Of a stretch of DNA of 64,000 bases, positions 13,935-19,193 are shown in pieces. Origin of the DNA: an uncultured Alphaproteobacteria bacterium (lineage in GTDB: Bacteria > Pseudomonadota > Alphaproteobacteria > Sphingomonadales > Sphingomonadaceae); NCBI GenBank assembly GCA_963775115.1, contig CAVZHP010000005.1, positions 127,817-191,816 of the forward strand, read 5' to 3'. Each line of letters opens with the position of its first letter. Positions within the stretch are counted from its first letter, which is position 1. The position numbers were made by a program, and so were the translations under genes. The notes under the pieces are model-generated. The model saw only the letters and a list, made by a program, of their open reading frames with translations. It did not search any database and was not told where the DNA came from.

Positions 13935-16271
13935 TCAGTCGTCGCCCTTGAGGAATGCGGGAATGTGGTCGGGGTTGCCGCCTTCCGAACGCTCAGGACG
14001 GGGACCGCGATCACGATCGCCACCCTCTCTACGGGGTCCACGGTCGCCGCCGCCACCTTCACGGCGCGGACCCCGGTCACGGTCGCCGCCGCGCGGACGG
14101 CGGTCGCCCCGGTCGCCGCCCGGACGATCACCGCCCGGACGATCGCCACGTGGTTCGCGAGGCGGACGGGAGTCTTCCAGCTCTGCGCCGGTTTCCTGGT
14201 CGACCAGCCGCATCGACAGGCGCACCTTGCCGCGCTGGTCGATTTCGAGCACTTTCACCTTCACTTCCATGCCTTCGGAAACGACGTCGCCCGGGCGCTC
14301 GACCCGCTCGTTCTTCATTTCGGAAACGTGGACCAGGCCGTCCTTGCCGCCCATGAAGTTCACGAAAGCGCCAAAGTCGACGATGTTGACGACCTTGCCG
14401 TTGTAAACCTTGCCGACTTCGGCTTCCTCGACAATGCCGAGGATCCAGGCCCGCGCAGCTTCGATCTGCGCCGGGTCGGAGCTCGACAGCTTGATCAGGC
14501 CCTCGTCGTCGATATCGACCTTGGCGCCGGTTTCGGCGACGATTTCTCGGATAACCTTGCCGCCGGTGCCGATGACTTCACGGATCTTCGCCTTGTCGAT
14601 CTGCATGGTCTCGATACGCGGGGCGTAGTCGGACAGCTCGGTGCGGGCAGAACCCAGCGCCTTGGTCATCTCGCCCAGGATATGCGCCCGGCCTTCCTTG
14701 GCCTGATGCAGAGCGGCCTCGAAGATCTCGCGGGTGATGCCCGCCACCTTGATGTCCATCTGCATCGTCGTGATGCCTTCGGAAGTGCCGGCCACCTTGA
14801 AGTCCATATCGCCGAGGTGATCTTCATCACCCAGGATGTCGGACAGCACGGTGAAATCCTTGCCTTCCAGGATCAGGCCCATCGCTATGCCCGAAACCGG
14901 ACGCGTTATCGGCACGCCCGCATCCATCATCGACAGCGATCCGCCGCAGACTGTGGCCATCGAGCTGGAGCCGTTGGACTCGGTAATGTCCGAGACCACG
15001 CGGACCGTGTAGGGGAAATCTTCCTTGGTCGGCAGCACCGCGCGCAGCGCACGCCATGCCAGCTTGCCATGTCCCGTGTCGCGGCGCGAGGGAGCCCCGA
15101 AACGGCCAACTTCGCCCACCGAATAGGGCGGGAAGTTATAGTGCAGCATGAAGTTCGAATAGGTCAGCCCTTCGAGCCCGTCGATCATCTGCTCCGATTC
15201 ACGCGTTCCCAGCGTGGTGGTGCAGATCGCCTGCGTCTCGCCGCGCGTGAACAGCGACGAACCATGGGTGCGCGGCAGGAAGCCGACCATCGCTTCGATG
15301 GGCCGAACCTGCGTATTGGTGCGACCGTCGATGCGCTTCTCGCCCTTTATGATCGCGCCGCGAACGATGTCGGCCTCGACCTTCTTGACCGACTTGATCG
15401 CGGCCATCTGGGTCTGGCCATCTTCACCGGCGAAGGCTTCCTTGGCCTTGGCACGCGCGGCGTTCAGCGCGTTGGAGCGCTCGGACTTGTCGGTCAGCTT
15501 GTAGGCGGAGGCAATATCCTTGCCGATCAGCTTCTTGAGCTGATCCTTGATCGCCGTATTGTCGCTGACGGCAACGTCCCAGGGATCCTTGGCGGCCTTT
15601 TCGGCGAGATCGATGATCAGATTGACCACCTTCTTGATCTCGTCATGCGCGAAAATCACCGCGCCAAGCATGATTTCCTCGGAAAGCTCCTTGGCTTCCA
15701 ATTCGACCATCATCACCGCATTGCCAGTGGCGGCAACAACCAGGTCGAGCGCGCCATTGGCGGCTTCTTCCTGCTTGGGGTTGAGCGTGTATTCGCCATC
15801 GACATAACCGACGCGCGCGGCGCCGATCGGGCCCATGAACGGCAGGCCCGAGATGGTCAGCGCAGCCGAAGCGGCGATCATCGCCAGAACGTCGGGCTCG
15901 ATCTCGCCGTCATAGCTCAGCACGTGAGCGATGACATTGATCTCGTTGTAGAAGCCTTCTGGGAACAGCGGGCGGACCGGACGATCGATCAGGCGGGAGA
16001 CCAGCGTCTCCTTTTCCGTCGCGCCGCGCTCGCGCTTGAAGAAGCCGCCCGGGATGCGCCCGGCGGCGAAGAATTTTTCCTGGTAGTGGACGGTGAGCGG
16101 GAAGAAATCCTGCCCTTCCTTGACGCTCTTGGCGGCAGTCACCGCGCAGAGCACAACAGTCTCGCCCAGTGTGGCGAGGACCGCGCCGTCAGCCTGACGG
16201 GCAATGCGGCCGGTTTCCAGCGTGAGGGTCTTTCCGCCCCACTCCATGGATACGGTTTTAACGTCGAACAT
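13935..16271 (-). CDS. pnp: Polyribonucleotide nucleotidyltransferase
   Basis: [33 protein letters not shown] and S1 domains. Confidence 0.98.
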
Positions 16272-16417
16272 GTATATTTCCTCAGTCCCGCAGGGCCAGA
16301 TTGCCCAAAAAATTCTGTGCGGGGTTAGCTGCCGGGTGTTCCGTCCCGGTCCGGTGCGGGGCTATTTTTGCCCCAATGGCTAGGGATGCCGAAATGCGAT
16401 CCCATCGCCCCAATGCG

Positions 16418-16450
16418 AAAAAGCGGCCCGCCTTTATGGCGGGCCGCTTT
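16418..16450 (-). terminator. Intrinsic terminator after rpsO
   Basis: 13-bp perfect stem AAAGCGGCCCGCC / GGCGGGCCGCTTT, 5-nt loop, U-tract on the minus strand. Confidence 0.8.
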
Positions 16451-16457
16451 CGCGAAA

Positions 16458-16727
16458 TTATTTCCGAAGTCCGAGCTTGGCGATCAGCGCATTGTAACGC
16501 GCGACATCGCGGCTCTTGAGATAATCCAGCAGCGAGCGCCGCTTGTTGACCATGGTCAGCAGCCCGCGCCGCGAATGGTTGTCCTTGGCGTGCTGCTTGA
16601 AGTGACCCTGCAGCGTGTTGATACGGCTGGTCAGGATCGCGACCTGAACTTCCGGCGAACCTGTATCGCCCTTGCCGCGGCCGTTATCGGCAATGATTTC
16701 CTGCTTCTTCTCGGCTGTTACCGACAT
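16458..16727 (-). CDS. rpsO: 30S ribosomal protein S15
   Basis: [25 protein letters not shown]. Confidence 0.98.
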
Positions 16728-16732
16728 GTATT

Positions 16733-17770
16733 CTACTCCGCGACATCGGGAAGGTTGAATCCCCTGACCACCCGGGCGTCACCGCCCGAAAGCTCGACGA
16801 GTGCGAGAGGAACATGCCCGCTTCGCGCCCAATATAGCCCGTCGTGTTGGGGCAGCCCGGTCAGAACCCGGCCCTGGCGGACCATGCTTGCCTGTTCCGG
16901 ACCGAGGTCTAGAGCCGGGATGTCGTCCAGCCCTGCCTCCAGCGGCAAGATTACGTTCTCAAGCGCCGCGCCCTTGCCGATATCGTTCAATTTGTCCAGC
17001 GAAATCGCGTGAGCAAGATCGAACGGCCCTGCCCGCGTGCGGCGCAGCATGGTGACATGGCCGACGGTGCCCAGCGCGCGGGCAATGTCGCGGGCGAGAG
17101 AGCGAATGTAGGTGCCTTTGGAGACGTGAGCGTGGAGGGTGATATCATCAACCAAATCTACTTCGTCACCCTGAACTTGTTTCAGGGCCCATTTCTCATC
17201 TACCACCGAAGCGCTGTTTGGCAGCGCAACTGCCCCGCTTTCGTTTCTATCGATCGACAGTGCCTGACGCACGATGGGTCCTGAAACAAGTTCAGGATGA
17301 CGAAGTGAAAGAGAGAAAACCGTCACCCCCCGCGCCTTCAGCTCCACCTCTTCCCCTGCCCGCGCGCGATCATAGGCCCGCTCCCCATCGACCATCAGCG
17401 CGGAAAAGGCTGGCGGCACCTGCTCGATCGCACCGGTGAAGCGCGGTAGCACCGCTTCGACCTCCGCCACCATCGGACGGTGATCGCTTTGCGCCGCCAC
17501 CTTCCCCTCAAGGTCCAGCGTATCGGTCTCAGCCCCGAACTTCACCGTGAAGGCATATTCCTTGCTCGCATCGAGCATCCGTCCGGCCAGCTTGGTCGCC
17601 TCGCCGAGAGCAATCGGGAGAACCCCGGTGGCAAGCGGATCGAGCGTGCCGCCGTGGCCGACCTTGACCTTGCCGTATCCCGCCTCGCGCAAATTGCGCT
17701 TGACCGCGCCGACAGCCTGGGTCGAGCCTAGGCCGAGCGGTTTGTCGAGGATGATCCAGCCGTGCGGCAT
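16733..17770 (-). CDS. truB: tRNA pseudouridine(55) synthase with an in-frame palindromic insertion
   Basis: [34 protein letters not shown]. Confidence 0.95.
17161..17305. repeat. RPE/REP-like palindromic element inside truB
   Basis: 32-bp terminal inverted repeats (17161-17192 and 17274-17305, 2 mismatches), each with an internal CCTGAA...TTCAGG dyad; translated [10 protein letters not shown]...[10 protein letters not shown]. Confidence 0.85.
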
Positions 17771-17783
17771 TTGGCAAACAGGG

Positions 17784-18455
17784 TCAGGCAAGGCCGACAA
17801 ATTGCAGAATATTTGTATAAATCCAGGCGAATGGGGGCACGACCAGCCGTCTGATAATGTCGAACTGCGGGCCAAGCTGCGGCAGCACCACCAGCATCGC
17901 GATCATGATCATCAGCGCATAGCGGTCCAACTCCTGAAACCGTTCGCGCAGTCCGTCCGGCAGGAAGCCCGCCAGGACGCGCGAACCGTCGAATGGCGGA
18001 ACCGGGATCATGTTGAACACCGCGAGAAACAGGTTGATCTGGATGAAGTTGATCAGGTTGAGCCCGAGAAATGCCAGCGGCGCACTGCCCTGCACCTGGG
18101 GTAGCAGCAGCTTTGCCAGGAAAGCAGCGAGCAATGCCAGGACGATGTTGGTGCCCGGCCCGGCCAGAGCCACCAGCACCATATGCCAGCGCGGATTGCG
18201 CAGCCGCATGTAGTTGACCGGCACCGGCTTGGCCCAGCCGAACACCGGCGCGCCGATCAGCTTGAGCATGCCCGGCAAGATGATCGTGCCGAACAGATCG
18301 ACGTGGCGCAGCGGATTGAGGCTCAGCCGCCCCAGTTGCGCTGCCGTGGGGTCGCCCAGTGCCCGCGCGGTCCAGCCATGGGCGACTTCATGGAAGACGA
18401 TAGCAAGGATCAGCGGGACGATAAGCGCAGCGGCCTCAAGCAGAGTCTCGTTCAT
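17784..18455 (-). CDS. Site-2 protease family (M50) membrane metalloprotease
   Basis: HEVAH, NPLRHVD, GWAKPVPVN, ALAGP, NMIPVPPFDG. Confidence 0.9.
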   Translation of the reverse strand: MNETLLEAAALIVPLILAIVFHEVAHGWTARALGDPTAAQLGRLSLNPLRHVDLFGTIILPGMLKLIGAPVFGWAKPVPVNYMRLRNPRWHMVLVALAGPGTNIVLALLAAFLAKLLLPQVQGSAPLAFLGLNLINFIQINLFLAVFNMIPVPPFDGSRVLAGFLPDGLRERFQELDRYALMIMIAMLVVLPQLGPQFDIIRRLVVPPFAWIYTNILQFVGLA

Positions 18456-19193
18456 CCGGCTACTGCTTCCGCCAGCAAGATCTCCGCCAGACCCTGCGGA
18501 CGGGTATTCATCGCCTGATGCCCTGCGTCGAGCCGCACGATGCGGTCCGCCAGGAAGCGAGCGGCAAACTGTTCCTGCCAGGGCGGCGGCAGGCTCATGT
18601 CCTTCAGGCACAGAATGAAAGTGGAAGGGATCGCGGCAAGGTGGTCGTAGTGCCACTCACGCTGGCTGTAGGTGCTCATGGGCCACATGTCGCTGCCAAG
18701 CTTCGCCACGAAGGCATTGGCGTCGGCATCGCTCATATCGTTGCAGAACATCGCGAGAAAACGCTGTGCGATGGTATGGGTGGAGGGATCGACCGGCCAG
18801 CCGACTTCGGTCTCGCTCTGCCCGTGCAGGCCCTCGCCCATCAGCTCGGTGGAAGTGCGGCCCGGATCGGGCGAAGTGCAGGTCAGGTAGATCAGCCTGG
18901 CGAAACAGGCCGGGGCGATGCTTGATCATTTGCGGCAAGGTGCTGCCAGCCTGCGAATGGCCGACCAGCACGACATCGCGCATCCCCGCCGCCTCGATAT
19001 CGGCGACGAGTTCGGGCGCGATCTCGTCGAAAGCGATGGTGCCGGTATCGCGACCCCGCTTCGTCCCGCAGCCCGGCACATCGAGCGCAAGATAGCGGTT
19101 CGCACCGCCAGATTGCTGTTTCAGCGCAGCAATCGTTTCTTCCCAAACCCAGCTGCCCTGCCCGCCGCCGTGGAGGAATGCGAAGTCAGTCAT
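18452..19193 (-). pseudogene. Alpha/beta hydrolase split by a +1 frameshift near 18895-18905 (or sequencing error)
   Basis: HGGGQGSW and GHSQAG in one frame; the continuation LIYLTCTSP...LDAGHQAM is in the adjacent frame. Confidence 0.75.

Follow-up and report, generated by a model that had tools for sequence, protein, structure and literature searches.

The truB gene of an uncultured sphingomonad, coding for tRNA pseudouridine-55 synthase, contains an inverted dimer of short hairpin repeats that is read in frame with the enzyme. We hold with good confidence that this element is an Ssn-linked REP dimer with a CGTC tag, one copy of which landed in the tip of a TruB β-hairpin with the frame kept. 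The window is the whole 64,000-nt stretch of DNA that was analyzed (G000:C5:127817-191816). An insert in truB is not a new discovery, since the phenomenon, including cases in truB of Sphingomonadales, has already been published; the element shows selfish hairpin repeats lengthening a loop of a conserved enzyme without killing it. The genome adds a clean trio, consisting of the repeat population, a 403-bp form carrying a GIY-YIG gene, and one translated copy, and this is a convenient system for asking whether Ssn-type nucleases move CGTC repeats.

Structure of the element within truB

The first-pass annotation had placed a palindromic element inside truB, and a repeat search of the window returned an inverted repeat there, within the truB ORF (Table 1). 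Its 33-nt arms are 94% complementary and separated by 81 nt, and the 17-nt arm core, CCTGAACTTGTTTCAGG, occurs twice in the window against 0.00 occurrences expected (100 shuffles). The conserved unit within it corresponds to genome coordinates G000:C5:144980-145118, and is translated in frame by the minus-strand truB as residues 157 to 203, approximately. The two arms differ at exactly two positions, which pair with each other, making the truB copy a heterodimer. As single-stranded DNA, the whole element is predicted to form one long hairpin (-45 kcal/mol, z = -8.6 versus shuffles). An Rfam scan of window positions 16000-18500 (E up to 1) left the element unmatched and returned only two weak, unrelated matches.

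Table 1. Window coordinates of the truB element, its parts and the adjoining genes
Feature	Position	Strand	Description and evidence
truB, tRNA pseudouridine-55 synthase	16733..17770	-	345 aa, intact; TIGR00431 (E 1.7e-64); solved TruB structures matched; AlphaFold model
Full inverted repeat	17160..17306	.	33-nt arms 17160-17192 and 17274-17306, including CTT/AAG; repeat search
Conserved unit CGTCA...TGACG	17164..17302	.	139 nt, inverted dimer of CGTC-tagged hairpins; ends from alignment of 35 genomic copies
Left arm, CGTCACCCTGAACTTGTTTCAGGGCCCAT	17164..17192	+	CGTCA tag, 7-bp stem CCCTGAA/TTCAGGG, loop CTTGT, tail CCCAT
Variable spacer	17193..17273	.	81 nt; encodes the center of the inserted peptide
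Right arm	17274..17302	-	Reverse complement is CGTCATCCTGAACTTGTTTCAGGACCCAT
S15-like ORF (rpsO)	16458..16727	-	Immediately downstream of truB; ORF list
PNPase-like ORF (pnp)	13935-16271		Also downstream of truB; ORF list

The coordinates, arm sequence and peptide had all been reported correctly by the first-pass annotation. The 345-codon ORF is free of stop codons across the element, and the catalytic motifs GTLDP and KGTYIRS are invariant. The two downstream ORFs are presumably rpsO (ribosomal protein S15) and pnp, names that were assigned by recognizing the sequences rather than by a family search. In an alignment with E. coli TruB (1r3f), residues 159-208 are matched by only three residues, in the turn that joins two strands. 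For a comparison of this loop, truB was gathered from 30 related genomes, and the segment from the R.V strand to the VSKGTY motif (the R..V..H segment) was found to be 69 aa long here versus 23-31 aa in 22 insert-free orthologues (10 from the same genus and 12 from genomes of other families). An equally long loop was not seen in any of these 22, and the added length is 46-47 aa, so that the earlier estimate of about 48 residues was essentially right. The AlphaFold model (32 sequences) has a mean pLDDT of 81, with a confident core in which most blocks exceed 90, while residues 160-203 fall below 50. Strands at 147-156 and 209-216 flank this stretch, which places the insert at the tip of a β-hairpin, where it is predicted to be without fixed structure. 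Under the explanation that we favor with good confidence overall, these roughly 46 disordered residues form a surface loop that TruB probably tolerates, as the first-pass annotation had proposed.

The repeat family and its gene-carrying units

The arm had been expected to be multi-copy, and a search allowing five mismatches found 77 arms in the 4.05-Mb assembly, a number that removes the single-copy alternative. They form about 36 dimers (139-141 bp), 4 solo arms and two longer units. The element is present about 37 times in the genome, and a 403-bp copy carries a gene. The arm consensus reads CGTCA, Y-CCTGAA, CTTGT, TTCAGG-R, CCCAT. The CGTCA tag is invariant (72/72 element ends, 77/77 arms), the CTTGT loop is present in 65 and the CCCAT tail in 69 of the 77 arms, and each of seven stem positions is paired in 75-77 of them. 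Two stem positions show compensatory variants (T-A in 49 versus C-G in 28 arms, and C-G in 72 versus G-C in 5), and this pairing, together with the double compensatory changes, identifies the small hairpin in each arm as the conserved feature. Next to the tag, an A lies opposite a C in 72/77 arms, and the following position is T-A or C-G. The spacers are far more variable than the arms, with only 55-65% identity in this part between copies and between species. At the level of the genus, a survey of 121 Novosphingobium genomes detected the arm in 78, at 1 to 120 copies per genome, and gave zero control hits.

The first-pass annotation had raised the question of coding versus intergenic location, and the truB copy proved to be the only clearly intragenic one in the genome, the remaining distribution being mostly intergenic. 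Six further copies with long spanning ORFs were inspected as in-frame candidates, and none was accepted as clearly intragenic. The copy at C9:236177 precedes the apparent true start of a long downstream protein, that at C8:51212 probably lies in a 5' leader, given its position just before a signal-peptide-like start, and the remaining long ORFs that span copies are arginine-rich, spurious frames. In many cases a copy immediately precedes an apparent start codon. Among the short copies whose ends were examined, no consistent direct repeat, and hence no target-site duplication, was found. The 14 nt outside each CGTCA are nearly free of G on the strand reading into CGTCA, including window positions 17150-17163 and 17303-17316: among 72 ends, positions -13 to -1 have 0-11 G, with T strongly preferred at -1 and -2. 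These G-poor flanks could mean that the element extends further than its tags, that certain targets are preferred or that a nuclease needs them. Elsewhere in the genome, 13 CGTC dimers are bracketed by a second inverted motif, AATCCTCCCC-N4-GGGGCAGGGCTATCGCATA, situated 20-22 nt outside each CGTCA end. These (G000:C2:408954-409160, C1:413480-413687 and 11 others, all outside the window) resemble nested or composite palindromes, and the hairpin part of the motif resembles an insert found in truB of other Novosphingobium species (type C).

Within the 403-bp copy (C5:308916-309318), identical arms enclose an ORF of 123 aa that matches the GIY-YIG family (PF01541, E 1.7e-16); an NCBIfam search of the protein gave no family. 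Three other species (G047, G091 and G068) have units of 403-535 bp in which these arms likewise accompany a GIY-YIG gene, each set in different flanking DNA. The GIY-YIG nuclease of the 403-bp copy may be the enzyme that spreads the repeats. Additional small GIY-YIG genes were observed in the genome. A second unit, C3:175830-176226, has such a gene (C3:175898) between CGTCA-hairpin arms, CGTCACCCCGGGCTTGACCCGGGGTCCC, which follow the same plan as those of the truB element with a different stem. A tandem pair of small GIY-YIG genes is found at G000:C1:463830-464470, and an inverted repeat of 30 nt, CCGTTCCTCCCGAGCGAAGTCGAGGGACTA, encloses the first of them; judged by eye, 22/28 bases of this repeat match the arms of a further kind of truB insert from other species (type E, RVERSRDT...LDTNG), and the mismatches fall at complementary positions. 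Close to the 403-bp copy is a 264-aa ORF without a Pfam match (G000:C5:307777-308916; L060 1278-2417), lying between that copy and a degenerate CGTC dimer, so that three arms bracket about 1.5 kb.

The first-pass annotation had described the insert as a MITE- or REP-like element and had called for a search for a cognate RAYT or IS transposase. The REP part of this description stands, as the element is a REP dimer, while derivation from an IS does not. The terminal inverted repeats, the length of roughly 140 bp and the many, largely intergenic copies are what an IS-derived MITE, or a RAYT-mobilized REPIN merely resembling CGTC repeats, would also display, and the genome does have a RAYT-like gene. 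Such an origin is nonetheless highly improbable: there is the missing target-site duplication at the short copies, the only gene found between arms codes for a GIY-YIG nuclease and not a transposase, the search for an IS transposase found none, and the tag is CGTC and not the GTAG of REPINs. The RAYT-like gene (G000:C1:460858-461184; L059 1453-2103) is single copy and the sole Y1_Tnp gene of the genome (PF01797, 36.5 bits in the genome search; NF047646, 71 bits, below the cut-off of 80). Three copies of a palindrome, TAAATAGGGACTGTCCCTATTTA, flank it, and as this is an unrelated REP of its own, the gene was rejected as the cognate enzyme.

History of the insert and recurrent insertion at the TruB loop

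In the species collection, the same element recurs at an identical position in each of the four nearest relatives by TruB sequence (76-81% identity). The loop DNA, 207 nt here, measures 201, 159, 159 and 207 nt in these relatives, all multiples of 3. Two sister species retain only 33 nt of spacer, 48 nt having been lost, and the right arm of L064 is short of two stem pairs; the sister species provide dated snapshots of the process, with the element complete, its spacer cut down or an arm in decay. The presence of a shared in-frame element in five species fits one old insertion, with the frame kept by selection on truB. A REP dimer would have inserted at the β-hairpin tip with a length and phase that kept the frame, most likely as a single event ancestral to a small subclade of Novosphingobium, and would thereafter have been translated as a disordered loop; the inserted peptide is presumably made and neutral to the enzyme. 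The spacers of the truB copies are 55-64% identical between species, versus up to 65% between the present truB copy and other copies in its own genome, and because the cross-species spacers are no closer than these, a single ancestral insertion is not provable from sequence alone. A tree of the TruB protein alone, built to count insertion events, has below 80% support at 15 of its 27 inner branches, and the main same-genus group forms a comb.

The arms have fared differently from the spacers. Between species, those in truB keep about 95% identity (only 3 of 58 nt differ from L061), while the four-fold degenerate sites of truB across the same species are only 63-71% identical. From these comparisons, a purely passive passenger would not be expected to combine such arms with so divergent a gene, and possible sources of the conservation are selection on the hairpin, gene conversion by other arms or repeated insertion. 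Another alternative is that the element has been co-opted, with its hairpins acting on the truB-rpsO-pnp transcript or DNA (through RNA stability, pausing or nuclease binding), or its peptide serving as a new surface of TruB. This would account for arms that stay alike when synonymous sites are near saturation, for the strong fold of the entire element, and for the L061 arm variant, whose T...G combination pairs only in RNA. We nevertheless consider co-option improbable, as the spacer decays fast and has been cut by 48 nt in two species, the right arm of L064 has dispensed with two of its stem pairs, the peptide lacks structure in the AlphaFold model, and many relatives thrive with quite different inserts or with none; gene conversion by the other arms, about 70 in number, could also conserve those in truB.

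The same loop has received other inserts. When 78 Sphingomonadales TruB loci were surveyed and sorted by loop type, 21 had a short basal loop, 28 a palindromic insert (at least six kinds), 9 a conserved non-palindromic insert, and 20 a loop of intermediate length, some of the last resembling remnants of palindromic inserts. The non-palindromic insert, FATTAGRPDPYDPSAPLELA, of about 27 aa, is common to nine Erythrobacter, Caenibius and Novosphingobium-like genomes (L070, L091, L093, L108, L111, L120, L123, L124 and L129), and may be an old insert turned into fixed protein sequence. The 26-29 aa loops of L080, L116, L090 and L069 (IQSSSSKLGED, ILPEPPSSGED) look like larger palindromic inserts with internal deletions, which suggests a cycle of insertion and erosion. 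Insertion points differ among the families, shifting over 1-3 codons at the left side and 3-7 codons at the right, and a tolerant turn accounts for this spread no less well than a defined target does.

Why truB is hit so often is a matter on which we infer rather than observe. One proposal is that repeats are genuinely steered to the hairpin tip as an integration hot spot, by a mechanism acting on the DNA such as cutting of single-stranded DNA by a nuclease or integration into a palindrome already present, so that the shared position reflects repeated targeting. The many kinds of palindrome accumulated in this one loop, and the remnant-like intermediates, are in keeping with it, as is the count within the genus itself, where 8/18 genomes carry a loop insert of at least three unrelated palindromic kinds. 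It would also explain why truB is the sole gene hit in this genome, why the spacers of truB copies are no nearer to each other than to other genomic copies, and why the carrier G014 groups with the empty genome G005 (support 99/92); further afield, REPs occur in truB of S. maltophilia and RPE-1 in truB of R. conorii (PMC3733652). We still regard the hot spot as rather unlikely. Insertion points that shift by codons are a better fit to a tolerant loop than to one defined site, and a target motif or duplication was looked for at the element ends and not found. The carriers of the truB-type CGTC element are exactly the four closest relatives, as vertical inheritance predicts, and survivorship bias is expected in any loop where an insert is not disruptive. 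A little less probable again is the combined proposal that the tip is a DNA-level hot spot for several hairpin families, at least some of them GIY-YIG-linked, whose arms are actively maintained by selection or gene conversion. If both parts were true, one defined, comparable site would allow REP dimers to be observed inserting under the direction of a nuclease, in a GIY-YIG equivalent of the REPIN-RAYT system.

Comparison with known repeat systems

The closest published description of such a CGTC-tagged REP dimer is that of the CGTC-tagged REPs (Di Nocera 2013, BMC Genomics 14:522, PMC3733652), which are defined by four features: the CGTC tag, a CCA tail, a loop of 4-5 nt, and a stem of 8-9 bp that opens with two A-T pairs. 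Most belong to Alphaproteobacteria, they often form inverted dimers with spacers of 20-100 nt, and they were stated to lack a dedicated transposase. The truB element shares the CGTC(A) tag, the short stem, the 5-nt loop and the CCA-type tail, along with the inverted dimers, the mixture of homo- and heterodimers, the mostly intergenic location and the occasional in-frame copy, and the spacer of about 81 nt in its dimers is within the published range. It differs in stem sequence (CCTGAA/TTCAGG, A/T-rich inside) and in having a 7-bp stem with an A-C mismatch where the published stems have 8-9 bp and an A-T pair; with its paired positions and A-C first position, the stem is near the published description and not identical to it. 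The Novosphingobium variant is absent at least from the four families tabulated in that paper. Intragenic cases named in its main text include truB of E. litoralis and Sphingopyxis alaskensis, and its supplement lists a CGTC-1 dimer in TruB of Erythrobacter litoralis (ELI_03525; residues 164-190, RHPREGGDP...DPRLRGG). The latter occupies the same gene, apparently the same region, and the same reading phase (RHP from CGT CAT CC), whereas the long, 81-nt spacer of the present element results in about 46 added residues rather than 20-30.

An analogy to Rickettsia palindromic elements had been proposed from the sequence, and the relationship turns out to be closer than an analogy, as the arm shares its tag, loop length and CCA tail with the superfamily in which RPE-4 and RPE-6, as well as dRS3 of Neisseria, have been placed (PMC3733652). 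In both systems, in-frame palindromes are translated as extra loops in housekeeping genes (Ogata et al. 2000, cited in PMC3733652). Many genes are hit in Rickettsia, while here it is one of about 37 copies, and the likeness follows the classification of PMC3733652.

A REPIN consists of two inverted REPs and a spacer, is non-autonomous, and forms a population together with a single-copy RAYT whose own flanks carry these REPs (Bertels and Rainey 2011, PMC3116915). The inverted pair with a spacer, and a within-genome population with an associated gene, are common to both systems, but the tag is CGTC here and GTAG there, and the associated gene codes for a hydrolytic GIY-YIG nuclease rather than a Y1 transposase.

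The gene-carrying units are most reminiscent of the small, single-domain GIY-YIG proteins known as Ssn, which are flanked by NTS/SRM hairpins (Chenal 2025, Nat Commun 16:2388, PMC11893778). The cleavage site of Ssn proteins on single-stranded DNA is immediately upstream of the motif, and the NTS-ssnA-NTS layout is IS-like; transposition by these proteins was raised there only as a possibility. In Neisseria, 2% of NTS copies lie inside genes (translated copies are not discussed), and sphingomonads are named among the repeat-rich taxa. The published SRM pattern, HGTCWYN(0-2)YYVSBRHN(0-5)WNVSBRGN(0-2)RNCYNB, is matched by Neisseria NTS and by the CGTCACCCCGGGCTTGACCCGGGGTCCC arms of the C3:175830 unit, and by neither arm variant of the truB type. 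What the two systems share is a motif that begins CGTCAT/C and continues as a hairpin, tens of solo or dimer copies per genome, and inverted motifs on both sides of a single-domain GIY-YIG gene, with a product of about 100 aa in Ssn and 123 aa here.
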